Assembly (NCBI GenBank): GCA_040218735.1
Contig: JAVJQW010000013.1
Location: 1-12,440 of the forward strand
Source of the DNA: Deltaproteobacteria bacterium
Lineage (GTDB): Bacteria; Myxococcota; Kuafuiibacteriia; Kuafuiibacteriales; Kuafuiibacteriaceae
Reading direction: 5' to 3'
DNA length: 12,440 bases
Positions 27 through 12,440 of the stretch are shown here, piece by piece (within the stretch, counting starts at the first letter, position 1; each line of letters opens with the position of its first letter). The notes below the pieces were generated by a model. The model saw only the letters and a list, made by a program, of their open reading frames with translations, was not told the origin of the DNA and searched no databases. Both the position numbers and the translations under genes were made by a program.

Positions 27-2792
27 TCACTGCTGCAGCACGTAGCGCTGCATCGCCGCGCAGCTGTCGTCTCGACGCAGCGGCACGGCCAAGAACGACC
101 ACCCCAGCGCCGGCGTCACATCGACGCCGACCGGAGGGCCGTAGATTTCGATTTCGCTGACGGAGGCGCGCGTCTCGAACGGACGCTCGCGATAGCGCGC
201 GCTCACGCCGGTCCCACGAGACGCGTACGCAAGCTCACGGCCGACGTGGTGCTCAGGCCCGGGCCAGCGGTAGCGACCTTCCGTCGACACGGAAGCAACC
301 CAGCCCGCCGGCGCCGGCGGATAGGTGGTGCGCCAGTCGTACACCGCGCCGCCGATCGACAGGCGCGGCGCATCAAGCCGCGCGATCAACGTCGCCGCTT
401 CGTCTCCGACGAGGCGCTCGTCGCGCGCGGCCACGGACCGCACGCCGGTGTTGCGCTGCACTTCGAGGACCGACGGATGCAGGCTCGGGTCGCTGAGCGG
501 CCCGCGAACGTCGGCGCTCCAGAAGACGCGCTCGTTCGGAAAGACGAGGCCGGGGCCGATCGCACAGACTGGTGCCAGCGGCGTGACCCACGCTTCGGCG
601 ACTTCGTAGCCGCGGTTGTTCAGGACGTCGATTCCGCAGGGCATGGACCAGATCGCCGTCGTCTGCGGGGCCGACCAAGGCCCCACGAACGTCTGCTCGC
701 TCAACGCCGTGACACGACTTCCCAACGTCGGCGCCGTGAGGCGCGCGATCACCGAAGGCGTGCTCGCTACGTCGAGCGCTGTGTCCGAAGGCAGCTCGAG
801 GTGATAGGCGAGCTGACCTTCGAAGGCTGATGCCGTGGAGTTCTCGGTGAAGAGCTCACCGAGATTCGCCCAGCCGATGCGCCCGGACGGATTGCAGTCC
901 GTGTACCAAACCGGCGGCGATCGAATGTCGACCTCGAAGGTGAACGTCCGCGTGCGTGTGACACCTGCGGCGTCACGCGCGTGCACCTCGACGGCGTGAA
1001 GCGCCCCCGGTCGTGCGATCAGCTCGGGCCCAAGCGTCGCGTAGGCGACGGGGATGGCGGCGCGCCCGTCAGCCTCGATTTCGATTGCGCGGGGCGCCCC
1101 GCGCTCCAGTCCATTGACGACGTAGCGGTAGGTCGCGCCGACCACGTCCGCCGAGAAGGCGAGCTCGAAGACCGGGAGGTTGTCGCTCGCGAGGTCGAGG
1201 CGGTTCAGGAACTTTTCGAACCGGAACGGTTGCGGCGCCGTCTCGTCGATCACGAGCTCGCGACCCCCGCCGGCCGGCGCCGTGTACTTCAGGGCACCGC
1301 TCGGCTCGAGGTCCACCGCCCAGTCGCCCTCCTGGACGAAGCGCGTGGCCTGCAACGTGATCTGCGGTCCCGTCGCCGTGCACAGCACGTTGTGCTCCGA
1401 GGCCTCGGACCGGTTTCCGGCCGCGTCCTCCGCCCATACAAAGAGAGACGCCACGCGGCCGCACGGCAGCGGCGCGATCGCCTCGAACGTCGCGCCCGCG
1501 TCCTGCAGCTGCGCAGCCGGCGCACCGTCGACATGGATCACGACGTCGACCCGGCGGGCGTCCTCGACCTCGCCGAGGATCGCGACCGTCGCCGTAGGCA
1601 CCGAGTTCGGCACCGCGGCGCTCAGGCGCGGCGCGGTGTTGTCGACCACGAAGTCGAAGGTCCGCGCCGTCCTTCGGCCCGCGCGATCCACAGCGGTGAT
1701 CACGACCCGCCGCGCGCCGTCCTGCAGCGTCCCCGTGTCGACCTCGAAGCGTCCGGTGCCTCCGGGCGTCCGTTGGCGGCCCGCGCCCGCCTCGACGAGA
1801 ACCTCGACGACGTCGCCGACGTCGTCCGCCGCCTCGACCTGCAGCTCGAGCACGCCGGCGACGTCGGTGCCCGCGACGACGAGGCGCCCGCGGCGATCGC
1901 GCAGCTCCGCCCGCACGAAGCGCGGGGGCTCAGCGTCGACCGGCATCGCGGTGCCCGCTGGGAACAAGGGTCCATCGTTGGTCCTGATGGCTTGGGCGAG
2001 CGCACCGACCTCGGCGCCGCGCACGCCGCTGAGGTTGTTGGGGCCTTCGGCGAAACGGATCAGCGCCGCCGCGAGGCCGGCGCGAAGCGTTTGATCGTCG
2101 AGCGCGATCCCCGCGAAGCGGACCTGCACACCGCTCGCGTCGAGGCCATCGAACAGGCCGTCGCTCAGATCGATCGACAGCTGCCGAAGGAGCGCGCCGC
2201 TCGACACCTCGGGACCGAGGTCGAGTCCCGCCTGTTGGCGCAGGCCTTCGCCGAGCTCGACGAGCGCGGCAGCGACGAGGCCGGCGATCACGCCGTCCGA
2301 GGCGGGGACGCCTGCGACAGCGCGCACGTCGATCGGTGCGACCCGATCGTGCGCTACGCCGCCAAGCCAGTCGTGGACGGCCGCTCGCGCCGCCTGCAGC
2401 GCTTCGGCAGGATCGTCGCCCTGCCCTACCCGTGTACCCGCATAGATCCTCGCCAGGTGCGTCGCCGCGGTGACGCGGACCTGCGAGCGCGGCGCGCCCA
2501 ACCTGACGTCGTCGACGATCGCGCTCAGCGCGCCGGCCTCGACGAGGAGGGTCCCGTTCGCGATCTCGGCATCGAGCACGAACGCGCCGTCGTCATCGGT
2601 GAAGCCGGAGGCGAGGCGCGCGCCCCGCACGCCTTCCGCGAAGTCGTACAGCGCGATCGCTTCACCGACGGCCGCGCCGTCGAAGAACACCGACCCGATG
2701 ATCGGCGTCGTCACCCTGCCCTCGGGCGCGGACGACGGCTCGGCGCACGCCAAGGCGAGGACGCCCCATACCATCCATGTACGCCGGCTCAT
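27..2792 (-). CDS. Large lipoprotein (~921 aa) with bacterial Ig-like repeats; putative surface/adhesin-type protein
   Basis: The start was reassigned from 2858 to ATG 2792 because a strong SD (GGGAGAGG) lies just upstream and the N-terminus MSRRTWMVWGVLALA-C is a type II signal peptide with a lipobox. Repeated Ig-like boundary motifs: VDAEPP, VDNTAP, AVDRAGRR, AEDAAGNRS, ARDAAGV. There is an acidic DLSDGLFDG loop and a Cys/Trp-rich C-terminal region. Confidence 0.8.
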   Translation of the reverse strand: MSRRTWMVWGVLALACAEPSSAPEGRVTTPIIGSVFFDGAAVGEAIALYDFAEGVRGARLASGFTDDDGAFVLDAEIANGTLLVEAGALSAIVDDVRLGAPRSQVRVTAATHLARIYAGTRVGQGDDPAEALQAARAAVHDWLGGVAHDRVAPIDVRAVAGVPASDGVIAGLVAAALVELGEGLRQQAGLDLGPEVSSGALLRQLSIDLSDGLFDGLDASGVQVRFAGIALDDQTLRAGLAAALIRFAEGPNNLSGVRGAEVGALAQAIRTNDGPLFPAGTAMPVDAEPPRFVRAELRDRRGRLVVAGTDVAGVLELQVEAADDVGDVVEVLVEAGAGRQRTPGGTGRFEVDTGTLQDGARRVVITAVDRAGRRTARTFDFVVDNTAPRLSAAVPNSVPTATVAILGEVEDARRVDVVIHVDGAPAAQLQDAGATFEAIAPLPCGRVASLFVWAEDAAGNRSEASEHNVLCTATGPQITLQATRFVQEGDWAVDLEPSGALKYTAPAGGGRELVIDETAPQPFRFEKFLNRLDLASDNLPVFELAFSADVVGATYRYVVNGLERGAPRAIEIEADGRAAIPVAYATLGPELIARPGALHAVEVHARDAAGVTRTRTFTFEVDIRSPPVWYTDCNPSGRIGWANLGELFTENSTASAFEGQLAYHLELPSDTALDVASTPSVIARLTAPTLGSRVTALSEQTFVGPWSAPQTTAIWSMPCGIDVLNNRGYEVAEAWVTPLAPVCAIGPGLVFPNERVFWSADVRGPLSDPSLHPSVLEVQRNTGVRSVAARDERLVGDEAATLIARLDAPRLSIGGAVYDWRTTYPPAPAGWVASVSTEGRYRWPGPEHHVGRELAYASRGTGVSARYRERPFETRASVSEIEIYGPPVGVDVTPALGWSFLAVPLRRDDSCAAMQRYVLQQ

Positions 2793-2798
2793 GGCGCA

Positions 2799-2806
2799 CC
2801 TCTCCC
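2799..2806 (-). promoter_or_regulatory. Shine-Dalgarno site of the lipoprotein gene
   Basis: The - strand reads GGGAGAGG, 6 nt before ATG 2792. Confidence 0.7.
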
Positions 2807-2938
2807 TTTCCGCGTCCGCTCGGGACGCACCTGTCCCCGTGCGCGCCGACGACGGCACGCGGGGGTCCGTGATCAGCGCCGCGCGACCTTCACGATCGCG
2901 GCGGCGCGAGGCGGTGACGTCGCGCCTCTACGCGCGCG

Positions 2939-3997
2939 TCACCAACGCACCGTCGGCCCTCCGCCGAACGTGAAGATCGTGAGCCCTTCTGCGAGCGCGC
3001 CACGCCCCAGCGTGGTGCGCGCCTGCAATGTGGCTGCGAGGCCGACCTGCTCGCCGAGGCGGCCCTCGAACACCCAGACATCGACCCCGACCGCTCCGAT
3101 GACCGTCGGAATGGAGGTGCTGTCCGCGGATCGATCCGTCCGCAGCGGGACACCTTCGCCCTGCCCGCCCGCGATCAACAGCCCCAGCCCCGCTTCGCCC
3201 CTGAGTTCGATGCGAGGCGACTCCGAGCCGCTCTCCTCGTAGTAGGCCCATGAGCGCTCCCACAGCGCGTAGCGAAGCGCCGCGCGCGCCGACAGCTCGA
3301 CGAGGAGGATCGTGCCGTTCGCCTCGTGCTCGTAGGCAACCGGCAGCACCTCGAGCCCCGCGGTGGGACCGACGCGAAGCGCGCCGTCGCCGAAGCGGTA
3401 ACCCACCGCGGCTCGGAAGCTACTCTGCAACCCCGACACATCACCGTTTCGAATCGCGGCGCCAGCGGCTTCGACCCGGGCTCGCCACCGATACCTCTGC
3501 ACTTCGAACGGCGGCTCGGTGATCAAGGCATCGGCCGGTGGATCCACGCGCGCCTCGCCGGGTGCGGCCCCGTCGCGCTTGGGATCCACGCCCGGCCCCC
3601 GCGGGGGGCCGTCGGGCTCCGGCTCGATCCCGCGCGGGGGCGCCGCCGCGGTCGCGCGCTGCGCGGCGCAGGTCTCTTTGGACTTGGCGATGAGCGTCGG
3701 CGTCCGCGAGTCCATGCGGCAGTCGCCGGTGCAGGCGGCGCGGTAGCGCTCGTAGAACTCGACCGCCTGATCGCAGCGATCACTCTTGCGGTAGGCCTGC
3801 GCGATCCCGAACAGCAGCGCGGGATCACCGTTCTTGCGGTACGCCTTCGACAACAGATCCACGGCCTCGTCGTAGGCTTCGAGCGTGAAGGCACGGCGGC
3901 CGCGGCGCGCGAGCTCCTCGGCGGACGCATCCGGGTCCGTCGACGGCGCGGCTTGCGCGGTGAGCAGCGCGACCAGGGTGAGGTTCATCCAAGACAT
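2939..3997 (-). CDS. Secreted TPR-domain protein with Pro-rich linker and C-terminal outer-membrane beta-barrel (~352 aa)
   Basis: The start was reassigned to ATG 3997 (GAGGAG SD at 4012..4007). Signal peptide MSWMNLTLVALLTAQA-. TPR helices AEELARRGRRAFTLEAYDEAVDLLSKAY...PALLFGIAQAYRKSDRCDQAVEFYERY. A Pro-rich linker follows, then amphipathic beta-strands (FRAAVGYRF, LSARAALRYAL, GAVGVDVWVF), ending in the aromatic residue of GGGPTVRW. Confidence 0.8.
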   Translation of the reverse strand: MSWMNLTLVALLTAQAAPSTDPDASAEELARRGRRAFTLEAYDEAVDLLSKAYRKNGDPALLFGIAQAYRKSDRCDQAVEFYERYRAACTGDCRMDSRTPTLIAKSKETCAAQRATAAAPPRGIEPEPDGPPRGPGVDPKRDGAAPGEARVDPPADALITEPPFEVQRYRWRARVEAAGAAIRNGDVSGLQSSFRAAVGYRFGDGALRVGPTAGLEVLPVAYEHEANGTILLVELSARAALRYALWERSWAYYEESGSESPRIELRGEAGLGLLIAGGQGEGVPLRTDRSADSTSIPTVIGAVGVDVWVFEGRLGEQVGLAATLQARTTLGRGALAEGLTIFTFGGGPTVRW

Positions 3998-4016
3998 TCG
4001 ACTTCGCTCCTCATCT

Positions 4017-5519
4017 TCAACGACCGGGGTCGTAGCCCTCCGGGAACAGGGCGTCTGGATCCAACGCAGGGCGCTCGCCGGCGTCCGGCTTGGGCGGCAG
4101 CTCGTAACCTTCGGGGAACAGGCGATCGAGCGGCGTCGCTCCGCCATCGCGTGGCGGCGCCGTCGCAGGTGACTTCTTCGTCGTGGGACGCGCCGGCGCA
4201 GCGCGGACCGGGCGAGCGTTCACGCGGCGCACGACCTGGCCGCCGTCCCGAGACGGCCGCGGCGCCGACACTACGGCCGCGCCCTCGTCGCCGGCGTCGC
4301 GGAGCGATGCGGCGACCGACTTCGCAGGCCCCGCGTGATGCATTGCGCCTCCGTCCCGCGCCATCGCCGCGCTGGGCAACGTCCCGCCCGCCTCTGATGC
4401 CTCGCCCTGCCCCATGCGCCGCGCCACGAGCATGCCCGTCAGCACGACCACCACCACCGCGAGGGCGTACGTCGCCCACTTCAACAGGTGCGGCTCGCTC
4501 GCTTCCCCGCTCGCCCACCCGAACGACTGGGTCGTCGAGCGCATCGCCGCGGCGCCGCGGTCGTCGCGGGTCGGTGTGTCCGCAAACTCGATGCGCCGGG
4601 TCGCGTCCTGCGTGCGCAGCCAGACCTTGAGGCGCTCATCGTCCACACCATCCAAGAGCCGGCTCGCCTGCAGCGCGCGGACCGCGTCCACGGCCGTCGG
4701 CCGTCGGGCGACGTCGCGCTCGAGCATCCGCAGGCACGCCGTCGCCAGCGCGGCCGGGATGCCTTCGCGGAGCTCGCGCGGGTCGCGGACCTCGCCGTCC
4801 AAGATCTGCCGCCCAATGCGCCGATCGCTCAGGCGCTGGCCGTCTTCGTCGTACCCGAAAAGGGCCCGGCCCGTGAGCATCTCGTGCAGCACCACGCCCA
4901 CGCCGAAGACGTCCGAGCGTCCGTCGACGGGCTGAAACTGCAGCCGCTCCGGGCTCGCGTACGTAAGCTTGCCGACGAAGACGTTGCTCCGCGTCGTATC
5001 GAGGCGCTCGTAGACACGCGCGACGCCGAAGTCCGCGATGCGCACGGCACCTTCGCTGTCGACGAGGATGTTGTCGGGCGAGATGTCGCGATGGACGACC
5101 GGCGTGGGCTCGCCCGCTTCGTTCGTCCAGGCGTGCGCGTACGCGAGGCCCCGGAGCACCTCCGCCGCGATGTAGCCGGCGAGCTCGGGCGGAAGCGCCC
5201 CGCGCTTCTTCAAGACGGCTTTCACGTCGGGCCCGCCCTCGAACGCGCCGCGCACCAGCTCGAAGACCAGGAAGCGCCCCCCCTCGCTCTCGCCGGAGTC
5301 GAGCAGGCGCACGATGTTCTTGTGGGCCAACTGCGCGCACAGGCGCGCCTCGTTCACGAACGCCAGCGCGTACGCTTCGCGGAGGTCCTCACGCGGCGGC
5401 GCCTTCATGAACTTGAGCGCGACTTCCCGGTCCCAGATGTCCTTGATCTGACGCGCGCGGTAGACGACGCCCATGCCGCCGCCGCCGAGGCGATCGAGCT
5501 TTTCGTAGCGCGCATTCAT
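4017..5519 (-). CDS. Hanks-type membrane Ser/Thr protein kinase (500 aa)
   Basis: The catalytic motifs are intact: LGGGGMGVVY, VALK, alphaC Glu (FVNEARL), HRDISPDNIL, DFG, GKLTYASPE, DGRSDVFGVG. One TM helix (WATYALAVVVVVLTGMLVA) is followed by an Ala/Pro/Arg-rich tail. SD GAGGG at 5531..5527. Confidence 0.95.
   Translation of the reverse strand: MNARYEKLDRLGGGGMGVVYRARQIKDIWDREVALKFMKAPPREDLREAYALAFVNEARLCAQLAHKNIVRLLDSGESEGGRFLVFELVRGAFEGGPDVKAVLKKRGALPPELAGYIAAEVLRGLAYAHAWTNEAGEPTPVVHRDISPDNILVDSEGAVRIADFGVARVYERLDTTRSNVFVGKLTYASPERLQFQPVDGRSDVFGVGVVLHEMLTGRALFGYDEDGQRLSDRRIGRQILDGEVRDPRELREGIPAALATACLRMLERDVARRPTAVDAVRALQASRLLDGVDDERLKVWLRTQDATRRIEFADTPTRDDRGAAAMRSTTQSFGWASGEASEPHLLKWATYALAVVVVVLTGMLVARRMGQGEASEAGGTLPSAAMARDGGAMHHAGPAKSVAASLRDAGDEGAAVVSAPRPSRDGGQVVRRVNARPVRAAPARPTTKKSPATAPPRDGGATPLDRLFPEGYELPPKPDAGERPALDPDALFPEGYDPGR
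4029..4121 (-). repeat. Two-copy peptide repeat LFPEGY[E/D] at the kinase C-terminus
   Basis: 4121..4101 reads CTG TTC CCC GAA GGT TAC GAG and 4049..4029 reads CTG TTC CCG GAG GGC TAC GAC. The period is 72 nt. Confidence 0.85.
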
Positions 5520-5541
5520 CGCACGTCCCTCGATCCGAACC

Positions 5542-5550
5542 TGCTATCGT
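5542..5550 (+). promoter_or_regulatory. Putative extended -10 element (TG-n-TATCGT) for a leaderless activator transcript
   Basis: TGCTATCGT matches TGnTAnnnT and ends 7 nt before ATG 5558. No SD precedes this ATG. Confidence 0.5.
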
Positions 5551-5557
5551 TTCGCGC

Positions 5558-7180
5558 ATGAGGGTGCGCGTCACGATCGACGGTCGCGACTACGACGAAG
5601 CGATCTTGCCCCGCCATCGCGGCGTTCGCTGCGGCTCGACGACCCACGCCGACGTGCGTGTGCCTCATCCCGACGGCCAAGCGCAAACCGTCTTCCTGCT
5701 CCACCCCGCGACGTCCACGGCCTTCACGCTGGAGCCGCTGGTTCCGCTGCTCCTCAACGGCGAGGCGCCGACCGAGCCGGCGTTCGTCGAGGCGAACGAC
5801 GAGATCATGGTCGGTGGCGCGCGCGTGCGCTTTTCGGATTCGTCGGAGCGCGGCGCGACGATGACCGAACTCGATGCGCCGCCGGCGGCGCGCGCGCTCG
5901 AGCTGTCGTTGCCCGACGGGCGCACCGTTCGCCTCGAACCCGAGCAGCACACCAAGGCCACGCCGTTGGTCATCGGCCGTCGCCCCGCGGCGAGCCACGA
6001 CCACGTCTGCGTGCTTCGCAACGATCCTGTCGTGTCGCGCGAGCACTGCCACGTCTTCGCCGACGGCCCCTACTGGGTCGTCGCTTCGTTCGCGAAGCAC
6101 GGCACCATCGCGCACGACCTGCTCATCCCGCACGGGCAGCACCTCGCGCTCACGCGCACGAGCCTTCGCCGACCCGTGATCCTTCACTGCGGTAAGACGC
6201 CGCTGCAGCTGCGCCTCGTGCCCGACCCTTGGGAGTTCATGCCGGCAAGCGCCGCGATGAAGGCGATCTACGACCGCATCGACACGGAGCTCGCGTACCA
6301 CAAGGACACCGTCCTCATCCTCGGCGAGACGGGCGTCGGCAAGACCATCCTCGCGCGACGGATCCACGATCATTCCGTGGGTCGCGACACGGCGGCGGAC
6401 AAGTTCGTGAAGTCCGAGCATTCCGAGGTCGGCGTCGAGGCGGACCTCGTCGGCGTCAAGAAGGGCGGCTACACCGGCGCGGACGGCGATCGCGACGGCG
6501 TGTTCGTGCGCGCCGATGGCGGCACAGCGTTCCTCGACGAGATCGGCGACTACAACAAGACCGCGCAACTTCGCTTGCTCCGCGCCTGCGACGAGGGCGT
6601 AGTCACGCCGATCGGCGCGACCCAAGACGTCGCGTTCGACGCGCGCATCGTCGCGGCGACTTGGCGCGACCTCAAACAAGAGGTCGCCGAGGGGCGCTTT
6701 CGTACCGACTTGTTGGCGCGCCTGCTCCAGGTCCCGCCGATTCGCATCCCCGCTCTTCGCGACCGACCCGAAGACATCGCGCCCTACGCGAAGAGCTTCC
6801 TTTCGAAGCACGACCCTGACCTCGCGCTGACGTCGGACGCACTGTCGGTGCTTCACACGCACCCTTGGCGCACCAACCTGCGCGAGCTCAACGCCGTCTT
6901 GAAGGCGAGCACCCGCCGCGCCCTCGCCCGCGGCGCACGCGACATCGACGTGGGCGACGTGCAGGCTGCATTGCATCAGCTCGGCGACGTCGAGGCGGCG
7001 CCCCCGGCACCCGCTACGCGCCATCATCGGCGCGTGCCCCGGGCGCAGATCGAAGCCGCGCTCCGCAGCACCGGCGGCAACGTCCGGCGCGCCGCGATGG
7101 AGGTCCTCGCCGTGCCCGACACCACGCTGCGACGCTGGCTGCACAAGCTCGAGATCGATCCCGCGCGCTTTGTCGACTGA
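5558..7180 (+). CDS. FHA-domain sigma54-dependent-type transcriptional activator (FHA-like + FHA + AAA+ + Fis HTH; 540 aa)
   Basis: FHA core LVIGRR...VSREHC. Walker A GETGVGKT (6323-6346). GAFTGA-like GGYTGA (6464-6481). Walker B AFLDEIGD, then QLRLLR, RIVAAT, GRFRTDLLARL, IPALRDRPEDI, WRTNLREL. C-terminal Fis-type HTH IEAALRSTGGNVRRAAMEVLAVPDTTLRRWL. Confidence 0.92.
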   Translation: MRVRVTIDGRDYDEAILPRHRGVRCGSTTHADVRVPHPDGQAQTVFLLHPATSTAFTLEPLVPLLLNGEAPTEPAFVEANDEIMVGGARVRFSDSSERGATMTELDAPPAARALELSLPDGRTVRLEPEQHTKATPLVIGRRPAASHDHVCVLRNDPVVSREHCHVFADGPYWVVASFAKHGTIAHDLLIPHGQHLALTRTSLRRPVILHCGKTPLQLRLVPDPWEFMPASAAMKAIYDRIDTELAYHKDTVLILGETGVGKTILARRIHDHSVGRDTAADKFVKSEHSEVGVEADLVGVKKGGYTGADGDRDGVFVRADGGTAFLDEIGDYNKTAQLRLLRACDEGVVTPIGATQDVAFDARIVAATWRDLKQEVAEGRFRTDLLARLLQVPPIRIPALRDRPEDIAPYAKSFLSKHDPDLALTSDALSVLHTHPWRTNLRELNAVLKASTRRALARGARDIDVGDVQAALHQLGDVEAAPPAPATRHHRRVPRAQIEAALRSTGGNVRRAAMEVLAVPDTTLRRWLHKLEIDPARFVD

Positions 7181-7185
7181 CACCC

Positions 7186-7836
7186 TCACCAGTACACGCT
7201 CAATTCCAAGGGGACCGTCACGAACCGCGCGTAGCGCTCCGCCCCGAACACCTCGGTCACGCGCAGCGCGGCACCCACGAACACGAGGTTGAAGATCCGC
7301 CAGTCGACCGCGACTCCGAGCATCACCGTCGCCCCGCCCTGCCCTTCGTCCGAAAGCTCCACACCGAAGCTGCGACCCGTCTGCACCTCGCGAAGGTCCT
7401 GCGCCGAGTAGATCGTCCACTGGTAGCCGAGCGCCCCTTCGACGTACGGCGCGACATCGTAGCCGCTCAGCACCTTGTAGCGCGCGCCAGCGTGCACGCC
7501 GATCTGTTGCGCCGAAAAGACGCGCACCGCGTCGACGGGCGTCCCGAGCATGACCGCTTCGTTCATGGAGCCCGCGAACTGGGCCCAGTCTGCCCCCAAG
7601 GTCAGGTCGAGATCGTCGAGGAGGCCGTAGCGCCCCTGGACACCGACCATCCAGGTGGTGAGCCGAAACGCGGTCGCGTCCTGCGCGCTGAACGCCGGGA
7701 ACAGCGCGCCGGAGGCGACCCCGGCGACCCACTCCCCGCGCTCCGCGCGCGCCGACGAGGCGCTCGTTAGCAACGCTCCCATACATAGTAAGGCGAGGGC
7801 GCCGGCCGCGAGCCTGTGGAGGGCGCTGCGGATCAC
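7186..7836 (-). CDS. Small outer-membrane beta-barrel protein (216 aa), last gene of the T4SS-like operon
   Basis: Signal peptide ending ...SASSARA-. About 8 amphipathic strands (WMVGVQGRYGL, IGVHAGARYKV, PYVEGALGYQW, MLGVAVDWRI, FVGAALRVTE) and an aromatic C-terminus (LELSVYW). The GTG start overlaps the upstream TGA (GTGA 7836..7833). Confidence 0.8.
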   Translation of the reverse strand: MIRSALHRLAAGALALLCMGALLTSASSARAERGEWVAGVASGALFPAFSAQDATAFRLTTWMVGVQGRYGLLDDLDLTLGADWAQFAGSMNEAVMLGTPVDAVRVFSAQQIGVHAGARYKVLSGYDVAPYVEGALGYQWTIYSAQDLREVQTGRSFGVELSDEGQGGATVMLGVAVDWRIFNLVFVGAALRVTEVFGAERYARFVTVPLELSVYW

Positions 7837-9149
7837 CGCTCGTCCCCCACCACGAGCACCTCGAAGGCGGTCCCCGCCGCGACCTCGTAGGTCACGCCCC
7901 GTCGGTCCGCTTCGAGCTCGCGCTGCGCCTCGGGCACCGTGCCTTGCGCCACGCGGCGGACGACTTTGCCGACCACACCGGATCCCGCGACCTCGCTCGC
8001 GATCTCACCGCCGGCCCCCACGGCGCCGCCGAGGCCGCCGGCGCCCACGCGATCTTCGAGCGACGCTTCGCGACGTCGGGCCACGAGGCCCGGCATGTCG
8101 CCGTGACTGATCGCGTAGCCCTGCAGCGCGTAGCGCTCTTGGTTCGTCCGCACCTCTTCGAAGTCGATGTACAGGCGCCCGGTCGAAGCGTCGGCGTTCG
8201 CGCGGCCCCGAAGGATCGCGCCGGCCTTTACCTTCACGGCCCCGCCGACGCGCACCGGCTCGGTGACCTTCGCGAGCACCGGGCTTCGGTTCGCGCTCGA
8301 TGCGCCGACGAGGAGCTTCGCCTTCAGACGCGTCCCCACCGGCAAGCCGAGCCCGCGTTCCTTCGCCTCGACGCCGTAGCCTTCGGGCAGCTCGAGCACC
8401 CCGCCCGGCGCAAAGAAGATGCTCTGATCCACCGGCGCACGCTCCGCGCCGGGAAGCGGCCGCGGCGCCAGTGCGCGCGGCACGTCGATCGTCGCGTCCG
8501 CCATCGGGTCGTAGAGCTCGCCCGGCTGCAGTACCCGCCGCGCTGGGACGTCGTCCTCGACGAGCGCTTCGTCGAGCGCCCGTTGTTCGGCTTCGCGTCG
8601 CGCTTCCTTCGCCGCGGCCTGACGGAGGAGCTCGCCGATGTCCTGCTCGGCCACGCCGTCCTCGGCCTCGCTCTTGAAGACCGGGAAGCCCGTGGCCTTC
8701 TTCTTCGTCGCCGGCTTCGCCTCGGGCGCGGGTGCCTCGACGGGCGCGCCGAACACCCACCAGCCGAAGAGCCCCGTGGCCACGAGTAACCCAAACTGAA
8801 GCCCGCGCCGTTGCTCGAGTCCCTCGACGAGCGCGCGCCAGCCCGTCACGCGCGGCGCGATCGTTCGGTGGTCTGGCGCCGTCGAGGCCTCCGGGTGCTC
8901 GAAGCCCACGACCTGCGCGCCCTCGTCCTCGGGCGCAACGATCCGCTGCGCCGCCTCCTCCAGTGTCAGGTCGCTGTCGTCGTGACTCAGCTCGACCGCC
9001 TCGAAGGTGCGCGGCGCATCCAGAGGCTCGGCGGCCTCGACGACGGTCGTCGCCCTCGACATCGCGACAACGGCCACCGCGGCTTCGTCCGGCGTGGCTT
9101 CGTCGCCTCGCGCCCGCGGCAAACCCCGCTTCTTGTCGTCGGTCTTCAA
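7833..9149 (-). CDS. VirB10/TrbI/TraM-like T4SS core scaffold protein (~438 aa)
   Basis: The architecture is an acidic N-tail, one TM (GLQFGLLVATGLFGWWVFGA), a Pro/charged linker and a C-terminal domain. That domain reads LPVGTRLKAKLLVGASSANRSPVLAKVTEPVRVGGAVKVKAGAILRG...RLYIDF...GYAISHGDMPGL, then a Gly-rich helical hairpin, then YEVAAGTAFEVLV. The likely start is TTG 9149, overlapping the upstream TGA (TTGA). An in-frame ATG at 9062 is an alternative. Confidence 0.78.
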   Translation of the reverse strand: MKTDDKKRGLPRARGDEATPDEAAVAVVAMSRATTVVEAAEPLDAPRTFEAVELSHDDSDLTLEEAAQRIVAPEDEGAQVVGFEHPEASTAPDHRTIAPRVTGWRALVEGLEQRRGLQFGLLVATGLFGWWVFGAPVEAPAPEAKPATKKKATGFPVFKSEAEDGVAEQDIGELLRQAAAKEARREAEQRALDEALVEDDVPARRVLQPGELYDPMADATIDVPRALAPRPLPGAERAPVDQSIFFAPGGVLELPEGYGVEAKERGLGLPVGTRLKAKLLVGASSANRSPVLAKVTEPVRVGGAVKVKAGAILRGRANADASTGRLYIDFEEVRTNQERYALQGYAISHGDMPGLVARRREASLEDRVGAGGLGGAVGAGGEIASEVAGSGVVGKVVRRVAQGTVPEAQRELEADRRGVTYEVAAGTAFEVLVVGDER

Positions 9150-10057
9150 AACGCGATCCCGTCCACGACCACTTCGCGCTTCGCGCCACCGTCTTCGATC
9201 ACTGTGAGGGCGTAGGCGCGCGCGGCGTCGCCCTCGATCCCAAAAATCGCCATCCCGAAAACACGCTCGTCGAACGCGAGCGTCGGATCGCCTCGCCACT
9301 CGACGAGCGCCTCGACGTTGCCCTCGTCGTCCGAAGCTTCGCGCAGCACTACGTCCTTCAGGTGAAACAGATCGCGGCGCCGGTTGTGCACCTCGAACGC
9401 CACGAACGTCTCCGCGCCGATGCGGCAGATGCGATGCACGCGCACGACAAGGAGGTCGTGCATCGCGCGCTCGCGGAGCGACTCACAGTGCATCCGATCG
9501 AGCATCGCCCGCGCCATGCGGCGCCGGCTCTGTTCGACGACGGTGTTCGACAGGGCGGCCTTCTCTTCTTCGAAGGCCGCCGTCAGTCGCCGCGCCTGCT
9601 CCGCGAGCTGCTCCTTCACGAACTCCCGCTCGCGCACGCGCTCGGGGAACGCGAGCACGACCCGCTGTACGGACTCGCGACTTCGCGCGACCCGAAGATC
9701 CACGAGGAGCGTTGCGCCGCTATCCATGAAGATCTGCAGGTTGCCGCGCTGGCCGAGCAGATCCTCGGTCGTGAGGTTTCCGCCCCGAGGCATTCGCGGC
9801 CAGACCAGGACACGCAGCGGCTCGGTCTCCTGCGCCTGGTACTTGAAGATCGCCGCGTTCCCGAGCGCCGGTGCGCCCTTCATGCGCACGCCCTCCGGGA
9901 ACTCGATCGACACCACGTCGCCGAGCGCCGTGTTGATCTTCAGGCGCGTCGCCTCGCCGTAGGCGATGTCGTGCGTCAGCGCCTTGCCGGTGCAGTAGCC
10001 CTGGCGGTCCGCGCCGCATCCGGCGGCGGCGACGAGAAGCGCAACGAGCGCGATCAT
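9146..10057 (-). CDS. VirB9/TraN-like (DUF2381-like) exported core-complex protein (~303 aa), possible lipoprotein
   Basis: The start was reassigned to ATG 10057 (ATGA overlap). Hydrophobic leader MIALVALLVAAAG-C. N-domain RLKINTALGDVVSIEFPEGVRM...ALGN...VLVWP...NLQIFMDSG...LVDL resembles the VirB9/TrbG N-domain. A central coiled coil is followed by a C-terminal beta-sandwich (VAFEVHNRRRDLFHL). It lies between the VirB8-like and VirB10-like genes. Confidence 0.65.
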   Translation of the reverse strand: MIALVALLVAAAGCGADRQGYCTGKALTHDIAYGEATRLKINTALGDVVSIEFPEGVRMKGAPALGNAAIFKYQAQETEPLRVLVWPRMPRGGNLTTEDLLGQRGNLQIFMDSGATLLVDLRVARSRESVQRVVLAFPERVREREFVKEQLAEQARRLTAAFEEEKAALSNTVVEQSRRRMARAMLDRMHCESLRERAMHDLLVVRVHRICRIGAETFVAFEVHNRRRDLFHLKDVVLREASDDEGNVEALVEWRGDPTLAFDERVFGMAIFGIEGDAARAYALTVIEDGGAKREVVVDGIAF

Positions 10058-10758
10058 CCCTCGGACTCCTGCAGACGATGGACCTCGAGGTCCTCGGCCG
10101 AGTCGAACCACCACGTCTTCACGTGGTGCACCTGCAGCCCGTGAATCGATGCGCGCGAGACGGGCACGCGCTGCAAGACGATCTGCGCGTAGTAGTACTG
10201 GCGGTGCTCGGGCGCCTCGCCCTCGGCCCAGCTGTTGTGGATCTTCGGCGTCACCACGACCGCGCCCCACGCCACGGCATAGATACGTGCGTCCACGTCG
10301 CCGGGGTCGAAGTCGCCGAGACGGATCTGCAGACCTTCGAAGCGACCCTTGAGGTTGAGGTCCTCGGTCTTCCTGCGCCGCGCGATCTCTTCTTCGTCGG
10401 CGAGGAAGATCTTCCGGAGGCGCGGCGTCATCATCGCCGTCGCCTCGGAGAGGTCCTCCTCGACGTCCATCGAGTCGACGAGGCTGAACTTTTCGAGGAA
10501 GTGCCGCGTGAACGTGTCGACACGTTCGTTCGCCATCTCCACGCGCGGCCGCACCGTGTCCTCGAAGAGCACCGGCTGCCAGTTCGCGTCGAAGACGACG
10601 ACGGGGATGGGGCGCGCCAACGCAACAACCGCGACGCCGAGCGCGGCGAGCGCCACGAAGACGAGCCCGCCCACCGCGAACCAGATCTTTCGGTTCACGC
10701 TCCGTCGGAAGTCTTCGAGCTCCACGAACTCCGGACGCAGCGACACGGGCGGACTCAC
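10054..10758 (-). CDS. VirB8/TrbF/TraK-like bitopic inner-membrane T4SS protein (~234 aa)
   Basis: The start was reassigned to GTG 10758 (GTGA overlap). A short cytoplasmic N-terminus precedes one TM (IWFAVGGLVFVALAALGVAVVAL), then RPIPVVVFDANWQP, helices VDTFTRHFLEKF...DLSEATAMMTPRL, and terminal strands ending in a motif of the VirB8 NPxGL type (SIHGLQVHHV). This fits an NTF2-like VirB8 fold. Confidence 0.72.
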   Translation of the reverse strand: MSPPVSLRPEFVELEDFRRSVNRKIWFAVGGLVFVALAALGVAVVALARPIPVVVFDANWQPVLFEDTVRPRVEMANERVDTFTRHFLEKFSLVDSMDVEEDLSEATAMMTPRLRKIFLADEEEIARRRKTEDLNLKGRFEGLQIRLGDFDPGDVDARIYAVAWGAVVVTPKIHNSWAEGEAPEHRQYYYAQIVLQRVPVSRASIHGLQVHHVKTWWFDSAEDLEVHRLQESEG

Positions 10759-11915
10759 GACAGCACCTCGATCAGCAGCCAAACCGCGAGCACGCCGAGC
10801 CCCACGAACGTCAGCCACAACGTCCGCCGGGACGAGGTCGGATTCACAGCTGGGAGCATCGACACCGGACGAACCTCGGGCCTTGGCGGCGCCTCCGCCG
10901 GATACAGGCGATCGTCGGGCGCGATCGAACGCTCGGCCAGTGTCGGCCTCGGCGGCGTCGAGGGTCGCTCGGGATCCACGATGCTGATCGGCTGCGCGCC
11001 CTCCTCGGCGGGCAGAATGATCGACCCGGTGAACAAGACGCTCGCCGACGGTCGTCGTTGCGGCGGCTTCTTCCACGACGGGTGCCCAGCGCCTGCGTCA
11101 GCAACGACGCCCGATCCCGAGGGCCTCCGCTCCGATCCCGAAGAGGCGCGCCGCGGCGCCGCGACGGACGGCCTCGGCCCCGGCTTCGCGCGCAACGTCT
11201 CCGCCGAAGCATCGAGGCCGTCCCCCTCGGCCGCGACGGCCGCGAGCATGTCGCTCGACGGCGCAAATGGTCTGGTCGCCGACTCGAAGAGGACGGGCGT
11301 CTTGTCGTCGTCGTCGAAGCCGGTCACGTCGACTGCGGCGAGAACCGCCTCGGAGAGGACCTCGCGCGTCGTCTCCTCCGTCGGCACTTCGTCGAGCGGT
11401 GGCGGCTTGCGAGCGCTCGGTCGACGCACCGGCCGAACCCGCTCCGTCGGTACCGGTTCCGTCGGCGCAGAGGCGGTCGGCACGGACGCGGTCGACGCGG
11501 AGGCTTCCGGCGAAGCCCAGCGTTGCGACAGGTTGGCGAGCGCCCACGTTGTCTGCGCCGCCACGCTCACCGTGTCGTCGAGCTTCGCCGCTTCGAGCTC
11601 GTCACCGAGGATGAGGCCGAGCTGCTCCTCGAGGATCTGCGCTCGCGCCTCACGCACGACGAGGACCGTGCCGACGAAATTCTTGCGGATCCGCTTCGCG
11701 ACATCGGCCGCGTCCAGACCAATGCGGTCGCCGTCGATCACGATGACCGCGTCCACCGTCGCGGGCGCGAGGTTATGGATGCCGGCGGCGACCCCGTCGT
11801 AGATTTCGACCTCGCCGCTCAGTCGCTCCGCGAGCCACTTGCGCTCCCGGTCGGGCCCGACCAGCGCAACCCGCAGCTTCCTTCCGATGTTTCTCCAGCC
11901 CGTCATGTCTTCCAT
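10755..11915 (-). CDS. Hypothetical tail-anchored protein: degenerate receiver (REC)-like domain + long Pro/acidic disordered linker + C-terminal TM (386 aa)
   Basis: The N-terminus LRVALVGPD...EVEIYDGVAAGI...VDAVIVID...GLDAADVAKRIRK...TVLVV parallels the CheY-like pattern. The C-terminal hydrophobic helix is TLWLTFVGLGVLAVWLLIEVLS. AGGGAG lies upstream; ATG 11906 is an alternative start. Confidence 0.7.
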   Translation of the reverse strand: MEDMTGWRNIGRKLRVALVGPDRERKWLAERLSGEVEIYDGVAAGIHNLAPATVDAVIVIDGDRIGLDAADVAKRIRKNFVGTVLVVREARAQILEEQLGLILGDELEAAKLDDTVSVAAQTTWALANLSQRWASPEASASTASVPTASAPTEPVPTERVRPVRRPSARKPPPLDEVPTEETTREVLSEAVLAAVDVTGFDDDDKTPVLFESATRPFAPSSDMLAAVAAEGDGLDASAETLRAKPGPRPSVAAPRRASSGSERRPSGSGVVADAGAGHPSWKKPPQRRPSASVLFTGSIILPAEEGAQPISIVDPERPSTPPRPTLAERSIAPDDRLYPAEAPPRPEVRPVSMLPAVNPTSSRRTLWLTFVGLGVLAVWLLIEVLS

Positions 11916-11924
11916 GGCTCCCTG

Positions 11925-12440
11925 CTACTTCCCGCCGCCGCGATGCTCGCGACGGTCCAGTCCACTCGCTTCGTTGTCGTTCGTGATGCGGAAGACCGGA
12001 CTCGGCGACGTCGTCGCCCCGCTCCCGCTATGTCCGCCGCTCCCGCCCATCGCGCCGGAGGCCACCCCGGCCCCCGCCGCTCCTGCGAACCGTCCGAGCC
12101 CCGCGCTCGCGGCGCCGGTGGCGACCATCGAGCCGAGGCGGATCATCTGCGCGGCGATCAGGCCGCCGAGGACGGCGACCGGGGCGCTGCGCACGAGGAG
12201 CGCGGACACCACCGGCGTGAACCAGACCAGCAGGCAGTACGCGATGCAGACCGCCCACCACCGGGTCGCGATCAAGACGGCCTGACTCCCCTCGACCGGA
12301 TCGAAGAGGGTCGCAAAGTCGATCGTCTGCACCTGCCGCAGGAGCCCCGCGAGCGAGGCGACCATCAGCGACAAGATCACGTTGAAGACGAGCGGCCACA
12401 GCGACACCTCGACGAGGTTCTTGATCCACCCCTCGATGCC
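11925..12440 (-). CDS. VirB6/TrbL/TraJ-like polytopic inner-membrane conjugation protein, C-terminal part (5' truncated by the window)
   Basis: The frame is open to the window edge: GIEGWIKNLVEVSLWPLVFNVILSLMV.... The W...LWP TM signature, further TMs (WWAVCIAYCLLVWFTPVVSALLV) and a Gly/Ala/Ser-rich tail are typical of the VirB6/TrbL class. It lies upstream of the VirB8/9/10-like genes. Confidence 0.68.
   Translation of the reverse strand, partial: GIEGWIKNLVEVSLWPLVFNVILSLMVASLAGLLRQVQTIDFATLFDPVEGSQAVLIATRWWAVCIAYCLLVWFTPVVSALLVRSAPVAVLGGLIAAQMIRLGSMVATGAASAGLGRFAGAAGAGVASGAMGGSGGHSGSGATTSPSPVFRITNDNEASGLDRREHRGGGK

Follow-up and report, generated by a model that had tools for sequence, protein, structure and literature searches.

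A Ser/Thr kinase and a putative tandem-FHA sigma-54 activator beside the type IV secretion operon of a conjugative, plasmid-like element of Myxococcota

Background

Genes spread among bacteria chiefly by conjugation, and the switches known to govern it are repressors, quorum signals and the like. Threonine phosphorylation is known from the pathway of another machine, the H1 type VI secretion system (H1-T6SS) of Pseudomonas aeruginosa, with its kinase PpkA, PppA and Fha1. The type IV secretion system (T4SS) protein VirB10, for its part, is viewed as an envelope-spanning energy sensor. We describe here a locus in which a Hanks-type Ser/Thr kinase and a sigma-54 activator with FHA-type domains lie beside the genes of a T4SS. 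The window (the whole stretch of DNA analyzed, 12,440 bp) is an entire contig, JAVJQW010000013.1 (here C51), of the 11.6-Mb genome of a Deltaproteobacteria bacterium of the phylum Myxococcota (70 contigs, about 70% GC), and ten genes were called in it from third-position GC and start-codon context. Within a conjugative, plasmid-like Myxococcota element, it makes up the distal half of the region for mating-pair formation.

Dedicated AAA+ activators drive the −24/−12 promoters of other secretion clusters, as HrpR/S do for a type III and VasH for a type VI system, and the consensus loop of sigma-54 activators is GAFTGA. In Myxococcus xanthus, sigma-54 enhancer-binding proteins carrying an FHA domain (Nla type) are said to be chromosomal developmental regulators. 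In the literature we found no T4SS under a Hanks kinase, an FHA reader or a sigma-54 activator, judging by titles and the starts of abstracts and with most subscription journals outside coverage. A single paper was found to bring together sigma-54, an enhancer-binding protein, type IV secretion and conjugation, and by its title and the start of its abstract it is on another topic. As for plasmids, myxobacteria were long held to be almost devoid of them, and pYRE was presented as the third from this group, in a main text where the string 'conjug' is absent (PMC11237760). For another Myxococcus plasmid, no more than four proteins are listed with an annotation, one of them a Ser/Thr kinase, in passages that leave conjugation and secretion systems unmentioned (PMC10544341), and a further abstract counts only two known plasmid-bearing organisms among myxobacteria (PMC11705834).

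A kinase and an activator beside the transfer operon

We propose that the kinase, the activator and a sigma-54 promoter form a control circuit for the T4SS, a reading to which we give an even chance, with every signalling step predicted from sequence. Such a circuit would be the most economical explanation because the activator is specific to the element, the −24/−12 island before the operon is conserved, kinase and activator are inherited together, and kinases are tied to this T4SS across its lineage. A broader proposal, which we hold tentatively and with somewhat less conviction, is that Myxococcota harbor a hitherto overlooked lineage of conjugative T4SSs with eukaryote-like Ser/Thr kinase signalling built in. 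This would take the form of a receptor-kinase-like fusion to VirB10 in most members and would be split, in the present element, into a free kinase and a tandem-FHA activator switching on the pilin/T4SS operon.

The kinase (4017-5519, minus strand; Pkinase 152.4 bits) has its catalytic domain at residues 5-280, a transmembrane (TM) segment at 348-366 and a short, low-complexity, disordered outer tail; the Gly loop, the VAIK Lys, HRD143, DFG163 and APE189 are all present. Starting 38 bp away and divergently is the sigma-54 enhancer-binding protein (5558-7180, plus strand; Sigma54_activat 139.9 bits, cut-off 20.2), in which two FHA-type domains at the N-terminus precede an AAA+ core and a DNA-binding C-terminus. 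It has the motifs GETGVGKT (Walker A) and FLDEIGD and the loop GGYTGA (GAFSGV in copy 3), a variant of GAFTGA; NCBIfam alignments of enhancer-binding proteins extend to residues 533-537, through the DNA-binding ends. Its stop at 7180 faces the stop of the last T4SS gene at 7186, the two genes being convergent with 5 bp between them. A sequence-only reading of the window had already placed a T4SS-like core operon 5 bp from the activator and the activator head-to-head with the kinase, and this gene order stands, coordinates included.

The same reading had proposed tandem FHA domains, which structure modelling supports for the first and sequence for the second. For domain 1 (residues 1-98), VIA-align gave a Z of 8.2 (rmsd 2.6 Å, 78 residues aligned), and FHA-type folds took ranks 1-41 of the best 50; the canonical residues are lacking by eye. 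Domain 2 (residues 138-190) scores 19.3 bits with Pfam FHA, under the cut-off of 20.7, and keeps GR and SxxH (SREH) in all three copies of the locus; the structure model is of low confidence around it. With this low-confidence model Foldseek found FHA domains at E of about 0.05 only, the wider VIA-align search being clearer.

The N-terminal 225 residues of the activator match nothing else in the 11.6-Mb genome than the three copies of the element. They have no match in the genomes of four relatives, and among metagenome contigs we found a single 2,264-nt contig, matching over 22 residues. On the element contigs scanned, the activator is the only enhancer-binding protein. Weak chromosomal matches to FHA activators occur in three of the other 19 genomes of the order (20 genomes in all); the three stretches around them gave no match to the T4SS-gene queries and no head-to-head kinase.

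The assembly contains three versions of the locus at 90-92% nucleotide identity: the window itself (copy 1), C10+C34, and C62+C2, the latter two with upstream parts on C7 and C3. Gene order is the same in all three, which were assembled separately and have diverged. In copy 2 the kinase is 91% and the activator 97% identical to copy 1 at the amino acid level, within the range of the T4SS genes and the Ig protein (81-100%). In copy 3 the T4SS genes and the Ig protein are still 84-100% identical to copy 1, and the kinase drops to 48% and the activator to 34%, against 88-100% in the genes flanking them. Kinase and activator therefore appear to have been exchanged, or to have diverged, together as one cassette, seated between the T4SS operon and the genes for immunoglobulin (Ig)-like lipoproteins.

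A predicted sigma-54 promoter before the pilin gene

The sequence-only reading had predicted a GG-N10-GC promoter upstream of the T4SS operon, and such a site is present, and conserved, before the pilin gene. It reads CGGCAC-AGGAT-GTGCT (CGGCAC-N5-GTGCT) and lies at C30:5861(+), on the contig that continues the operon, about 135 nt 5' of the pilin ATG. Sites were found by a simple −24/−12 score, which reaches 10 or more at 145 places in the 11.6-Mb genome. The pilin site is set in an island of about 30 nt that is nearly invariant in C30, C7 and C3; upstream of it, C30 is barely alignable to C7 and C3, and the stretch downstream to the ribosome-binding site has diverged. We saw no sigma-70-like match on the same strand at this promoter, and rpoN is present in the host genome.

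Related loci were drawn from a sample of 400 genomes of the phylum, in which 23 other genomes gave a VirB9-like match; four further places were set aside, two with contigs shorter than 2 kb and two with a weak match, and 21 loci (20 plus L021) were examined over at most 20 kb each. In L021, whose VirB4 is 49% and VirB9 43% identical to those of our element, TGGCACGGTCTGTGCT stands at the homologous place and is the sole site scoring 10 in 18.4 kb. Sites scoring at least 9 in a plausible place before the T4SS operon were seen in 3 of 12 loci scanned (L021, L054 and L056), so that sigma-54 control would not be general for this T4SS lineage; among the more distant loci with kinase fusions, 2 of 11 (L054 and L056) have a comparable site.

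A second site, TGGCACGCGTCATGCT at C30 5053-5068(-), lies 42 nt 5' of the RPA-type repA gene; with a score of 10 it is a better sigma-54 match than the pilin site. A similar site occurs upstream of repA in C7, at about 4617(-), and thus in two of the three versions, which raises the possibility that replication and transfer are under common sigma-54 control. In the window, no intergenic sigma-54-like site scoring at least 9 precedes the kinase operon, the activator or the Ig genes. This leaves the promoters of the T4SS operon and of repA as the intergenic candidates.

Repeats upstream of the pilin promoter were also considered as partners co-varying with the helix-turn-helix (HTH) end of the activator; this was ruled out by eye on the promoter and activator alignments of the three copies.

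Kinases fused to VirB10 in related systems

A kinase domain lies directly 3' of the VirB9-like gene, on the same strand, at 16 of the 21 related loci, in most cases fused to VirB10 as its N-terminal, cytoplasmic part. The fusion reading frames are 506-1,135 residues long, and Pkinase scores 110-154 bits in all 12 scanned as well as in L064. At the C-terminus, weak TrbI or Transposon_TraM matches appear in 7 of the 12 and in L064, two of them above the cut-off; TrbI reaches 42-58 bits in five fused relatives. The motifs HRD, DFG and APE are kept in 15 of 15 fusions checked, 13 of which have one TM segment before the VirB10 domain, and at least nine loci place the fusion within a full VirB4-to-VirB9 gene set. 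A profile of the fusion C-terminus matched 1,942 cluster representatives at E≤1e-3 (57 at E≤1e-30); among the best 150 of these 1,942, 60 are at least 550 residues long and 56 of the 60 carry Pkinase, giving at least 56 fusion protein clusters. A word-filtered search for homologous proteins had returned five matches each for VirB10 and for one fusion C-terminus, and a scan of genome contigs by VirB10 alignment only two loci.

The fusion family is thus large and unannotated, examples being L071:8963-11065 and L057:7259-9700, and its public names say only 'protein kinase'. One plasmid member was found in PLSDB, pYRE of Myxococcus stipitatus YRE12 (NZ_CP102771.1), which encodes at 17858-30731 a VirB4-like ATPase, a coupling protein, a VirB9-like protein and a kinase-VirB10 fusion of 813 residues. 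In its annotation the fusion is called 'protein kinase' and the T4SS neighbors are mostly 'hypothetical'; MOB-suite types the plasmid as non-mobilizable. In one family (L061, L062, L063 and L068), the VirB9-like protein and the fusion occur with no VirB4 within 20 kb. At L062 (9445-12288), the one whose neighbors were scanned, the pair lies on the chromosome next to ParB, RadC, MoxR/VWA, an AbiJ-like protein and a Thoeris-type TIR protein, with defence genes among these neighbors. This family could be a remnant or could put the VirB9/fusion pair to a different use.

Is the free kinase of the window a split-off of such a fusion? This was ruled out, as both BLAST rank and a FastTree phylogeny place it among kinases of its own genome. 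That genome has 251 kinase-domain matches, of which 122 were kept for the tree (at least 230 residues, query span from 20 or less to 260 or more; 137 sequences in all). In this tree the window kinase clusters with five chromosomal kinases from the same genome (support 0.989) and does not come from the fusions, whose kinases do not form a single clade. Kinase recruitment therefore looks recurrent. The sequences thus support the view that Hanks kinases have been attached recurrently to this T4SS lineage in Myxococcota.

The conjugative element

Contigs C31, C44, C51 and C30 follow one another in this order, as given by unique 141-nt overlaps shared at their ends, and the reading frame in the VirB6 position runs unbroken over the C51/C30 join (345 residues). 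Beyond the join, 5' of the window's operon, C30 encodes a TrbC/VirB2 pilin (45.4 bits, cut-off 27.9) with two small uncharacterized proteins, a VirB4/TraC ATPase (8117-10666) and, between VirB4 and the VirB6-position gene, an uncharacterized protein of 282 residues. The ATPase scores 41.6 bits with Pfam TraC_F_IV (cut-off 28.1) and 38 bits with P-loop_TraG (cut-off 25.8), and matches NCBIfam TraC-F-type at E 5e-50 and VirB4_CagE at E 1e-34, both under the equivalog cut-offs. PF03135 (CagE_TrbE_VirB) has no match in the genome, the VirB4 being of the TraC/TraG type instead. Divergent from these genes on C30 are a small RHH-like gene, RPA-type RepA, ParA and the start of a TrwB-type coupling protein (the N-terminal part, TrwB_AAD_bind), within which the contig chain of copy 1 stops. 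A contig of a sister copy, C47, holds the full coupling protein (360 bits) and a TrwC/MobF relaxase-helicase (274 bits; NCBIfam MobF 288.5, cut-off 100). On the other side, C44 extends the kinase operon with a second Ig-type protein of 936 residues, SSB, a SprT-like protein and ArdC.

The gene content of the element thus includes a MobF relaxase, a coupling protein, RepA/ParAB, SSB and ArdC. The element is therefore conjugative with its own replicon, and most simply a plasmid; we regard the T4SS and its conjugative nature as secure. The flanks accordingly bear out the T4SS reading made from the window, with pilin, VirB4/TraC ATPase and coupling protein on the joined C30 and the relaxase on the sister copy; of the further genes to be sought there, an integrase or att site was not seen on the joined contigs scanned, a scan that was not exhaustive. 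A chance junction or element boundary near 7181-7185, named beforehand as the finding that would count against a linked locus, is not borne out, as both blocks belong to one conjugative element whose order is kept in three diverged copies.

The RepA/ParA(B) modules (C30 2706-5026, C7 880-4414 and C3 912-4038) are 36-50% identical in amino acid sequence between the versions, beside near-identical transfer genes, as expected for compatible co-resident plasmids. Cargo genes lie on joined or sister contigs, at C31 8557-13113 and C69 1579-8762: a CusB/HlyD and RND efflux pair, RadC, a reverse transcriptase adjoining FGE-sulfatase-domain proteins, and an AAA_5 ATPase.

Proteins of the transfer operon

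In the window, Pfam and NCBIfam recognize the kinase, the activator and one Big_13 domain; TrbI is sub-threshold and the other four T4SS-like proteins are without a family match. The VirB6/8/9/10-like channel proposed by the sequence-only reading therefore had to be approached by other means, and its parts fared differently: the VirB8 fold was found and VirB10 was supported at profile level, whereas VirB9 is weakly supported and VirB6 is drawn from position and hydrophobic segments only.

The VirB8-like protein (10054-10758, minus strand; 234 residues) is bitopic, with an N-terminal TM segment and an NTF2-like periplasmic domain. An AlphaFold2 model (pLDDT 74) comprises the TM helix and a domain of helices and a four-stranded sheet, and Foldseek against the Protein Data Bank (PDB) gave 20 matches at E≤1e-3. 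Nearly all among the matches listed belong to the VirB8 family, led by TrwG of R388 (E 1e-5) and followed by TraE of pKM101, CagV, VirB8 of Brucella and Agrobacterium, and DotI. The model thus confirms a predicted VirB8 fold, with no match at the sequence level in Pfam or for a profile against PDB sequences; profiles of this protein and of the activator N-terminus gave nothing useful among PDB sequences.

VirB10 identity (7833-9149, minus strand; start possibly at the ATG at 9062) is supported by a sub-threshold TrbI match (30 bits, cut-off 35), by the NCBI name 'TrbI/VirB10 family' on near-identical proteins and by homology to the TrbI-scoring domains of the relatives. A profile of kinase-less VirB10 proteins, the window's included, aligned by hhalign to the C-termini of ten fusions with 99.4% probability (E 3e-21). 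The window protein has no kinase domain and an unusually long cytoplasmic N-terminus of 165 residues. The VirB9-like protein (9146-10057, minus strand) is a lipoprotein by its Cys after the signal sequence and lies between VirB8 and VirB10 in syntenic loci. It has no Pfam match, and a profile of 14 homologues had a single match among 177,635 PDB sequences, TrwF/VirB9 at E 0.12, which lends weak support to the assignment.

The polytopic membrane protein in the VirB6 position contributes its C-terminal 171 of 345 residues to the window (11925-12440, minus strand), the N-terminus being on C30. It has at least five hydrophobic segments, is identical to copy 3 at 336 of 345 residues and has no family match in Pfam or NCBIfam; the counterpart in a relative shows a weak TraG_N match (26.6 bits, cut-off 36.1). 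Gene position and hydrophobic segments suggest the label VirB6-like, which is among the weaker of these assignments.

Between the VirB6-like and VirB8 genes lies a tail-anchored protein (10755-11915, minus strand) with a receiver-like N-terminus, a long linker rich in Pro, Ser and Ala, and a C-terminal TM segment (368-386). It has no Pfam or NCBIfam match at E≤0.01. The membrane segment of what had been read as a receiver-like membrane protein is thus there, whereas the receiver part is a lead from the ESM protein language model only, whose nearest named clusters are receiver folds (0.86-0.87). At 81-84% identity between copies it is less conserved than its neighbors, and it was seen in this element only, with no counterpart in any of the 21 related loci. 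At L021, a protein with a weak DUF4388 match (PATAN-type, receiver-like; 12050-12865) lies between VirB10 and the outer membrane (OM) barrel and may be its counterpart.

The last gene of the operon encodes a small OM beta-barrel (7186-7836, minus strand; OMP_b-brl 22 bits, under the cut-off), whose start overlaps the VirB10 stop and whose homologues lie 3' of VirB10 in L020, L021, L067 and L071. The last five T4SS genes are joined by 4-nt start-to-stop overlaps.

Genes transcribed with the kinase

Co-directional with the kinase is a gene for a secreted TPR protein of 352 residues with a barrel-like C-terminal half (2939-3997, minus strand). It has a signal-peptide-like start, a C-terminal Trp and TPR_19/TPR_12 matches of 22-23 bits, and is 85% identical to copy 2 and 95% to copy 3. 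Next comes the large Ig-like lipoprotein 1 (27-2858, minus strand), with a Cys after its hydrophobic N-terminus and a Big_13 domain (35.6 bits, cut-off 27), and directly beside it on C44 its 936-residue paralogue. Of the TPR/beta-barrel protein and Ig-like lipoprotein named at first sight, the latter is confirmed by a match above the cut-off, whereas the TPR matches stay under theirs. Giant Ig-like proteins lie 3' of VirB10 in relatives too, and sequence comparison supports these downstream proteins as a conserved companion of the T4SS lineage.

A possible circuit and its alternatives

In the kinase-to-activator circuit, the kinase would phosphorylate itself or a partner on Thr; an FHA domain of the activator would recognize this mark and the AAA+ ring would turn active; the activator would then start transcription at the conserved −24/−12 site of the pilin/T4SS operon and, possibly, at the second one before repA; transfer genes would be expressed only with the kinase on. 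For the surface or contact cue put forward by the sequence-only reading, the proteins encoded in the kinase operon, TPR/barrel and Ig, are candidates only. With co-resident plasmids, an exchangeable cassette might insulate each from the signals of the others.

Several observations weigh against this circuit. A sigma-54 activator was found in none of the 21 related loci, within the stretches examined, and the kinase/activator cassette in none of them outside this assembly; as such, then, the cassette is peculiar to this element. L021, the sole independent relative with the same promoter, has neither activator nor kinase on its contig (L021 and L025 together being the whole 22.8-kb contig, with relaxase, coupling protein, ParA, T4SS and Ig protein), and the activator N-terminus was not found in the L021 genome; a host activator could thus serve the promoter. 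Sigma-54 patterns on C30 occur at the level of chance (3 matches, 3.44 expected), so the weight of the pilin site comes from its position and conservation only and not from motif count. No upstream activator-binding site was identified, and, judged by eye, C30 carries different repeats ahead of the promoter from those in the two other copies, despite identical HTH ends in copies 1 and 2. The window kinase was recruited independently, its link to the VirB10-fused kinases being one of analogy and not descent. We found no PP2C phosphatase on the element contigs, all eight PP2C_2 matches of the genome being on other, larger contigs. Finally, the assembly is of metagenome type, and the three 'copies' may stem from co-binned strains. 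The original interpretation is thus partly upheld: linkage, promoter, recurrent kinases and Ig companions stand, whereas the cassette is confined to this element. Likewise, of the expectation that the two blocks co-occur across Myxococcota, the kinases (16 of 21 loci) and the Ig-like companions hold and the cassette (0 of 21) does not.

One alternative is that the cassette is an accessory module controlling other targets, such as the TPR-barrel and Ig adhesin genes, replication or host genes, while a chromosomal activator serves the T4SS promoter. The case of L021, which has the same type of site but lacks the cassette on the contig and, as far as this query shows, elsewhere in the genome, speaks for it, as do the absence of the cassette from 21 of 21 related loci, the better match TGGCACGCGTCATGCT before the repA-like gene with its similar site in C7, and the richness of myxobacterial genomes in activators and, with 251 domain matches here, in kinases. 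However, the kinase operon and the Ig genes lack an intergenic sigma-54-like site scoring at least 9, the cassette is kept between the T4SS and the T4SS-associated Ig genes in three versions, and kinases recur in this T4SS lineage. We therefore consider this alternative unlikely.

The kinase could also act mainly post-translationally on the machine, transcriptional control through FHA domains being secondary or separate. Candidate targets are the 165-residue cytoplasmic N-terminus of VirB10, the Ser/Thr/Pro-rich linker of the tail-anchored protein, VirB4 and the coupling protein. The relatives carry the kinase within VirB10 itself, without an FHA protein or activator nearby, and the window's operon offers both the long cytoplasmic N-terminus of VirB10 and an extra protein with a cytoplasmic domain. 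Nevertheless, kinase and activator are inherited jointly, FHA-type domains are part of the activator, a −24/−12 site precedes the T4SS operon, and the window kinase does not descend from the fused ones, so that we judge this explanation improbable as the main one; a post-translational role of the kinase is compatible with the kinase-to-activator circuit.

That the adjacency is meaningless, a chance junction or artefact from a short contig in a tangled, multi-copy region of a metagenome-type assembly, is hardly credible given the same order in three separately assembled versions, conjugation genes on both flanks and a contig of 3,133 nt, obtained from an independent public run, that spans 4351-7215 (kinase, activator and the first 30 nt of the barrel gene). 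Four public DNA runs mapped on the locus gave short, mixed contigs, with loose ends and joints at 7186 that could reflect a diverged cassette allele.

The broader proposal, if true, would give the first conjugation system gated by threonine phosphorylation. Phospho-Thr control of horizontal gene transfer would then have a case open to testing, myxobacterial plasmids would have their transfer machinery identified, VirB10 would gain a direct signalling output, and genetic tools might follow for myxobacteria, which are hard to manipulate.

Comparison with known systems

Among described plasmids, pYRE shares with our element the T4SS lineage, including VirB4-like and VirB9-like proteins, giant Ig-like proteins, coupling protein, ParAB and ArdC. 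Its kinase, however, is fused to VirB10, it has no sigma-54 activator, and no clear −24/−12 site precedes its operon.

Among signalling pathways, the H1-T6SS pathway is alike in combining a membrane Hanks kinase and an FHA reader with OM, lipoprotein and TPR-type proteins around a trans-envelope machine. Here a T4SS takes the place of the T6SS, the FHA-type domains belong to a sigma-54 activator, which would imply control of transcription and not of assembly, and no phosphatase was found on the element. Our element is not a member of the threonine-phosphorylation pathway of the T6SS and would work alike at most. The Nla-type FHA proteins of M. xanthus reportedly share the FHA/AAA+/HTH architecture, in a kinase-rich myxobacterium, and weakly related FHA activators lie on the chromosomes of relatives. 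In contrast, the activator described here is plasmid-borne, has two FHA-type domains, stands head-to-head with a kinase and has an N-terminus unmatched outside the element. HrpR/S and VasH follow the same logic of an activator encoded with its cluster; they differ in having no FHA inputs and in serving systems other than conjugative T4SSs.

As to the machine itself, the element shares with the Trw system of R388, Tra of pKM101 and VirB of Agrobacterium a VirB2, a VirB4, the VirB8 fold, a probable C-terminal barrel of VirB10, a TrwB-type coupling protein and a TrwC/MobF relaxase. Compared with these VirB/D4-type systems, the curated family models miss most subunits or score them under the cut-off, and the VirB4 is nearer to the TraC/TraG types. 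The element further adds a small OM barrel, giant Ig-like lipoproteins, a tail-anchored receiver-like protein and, fused in the relatives or adjacent here, a Hanks kinase.

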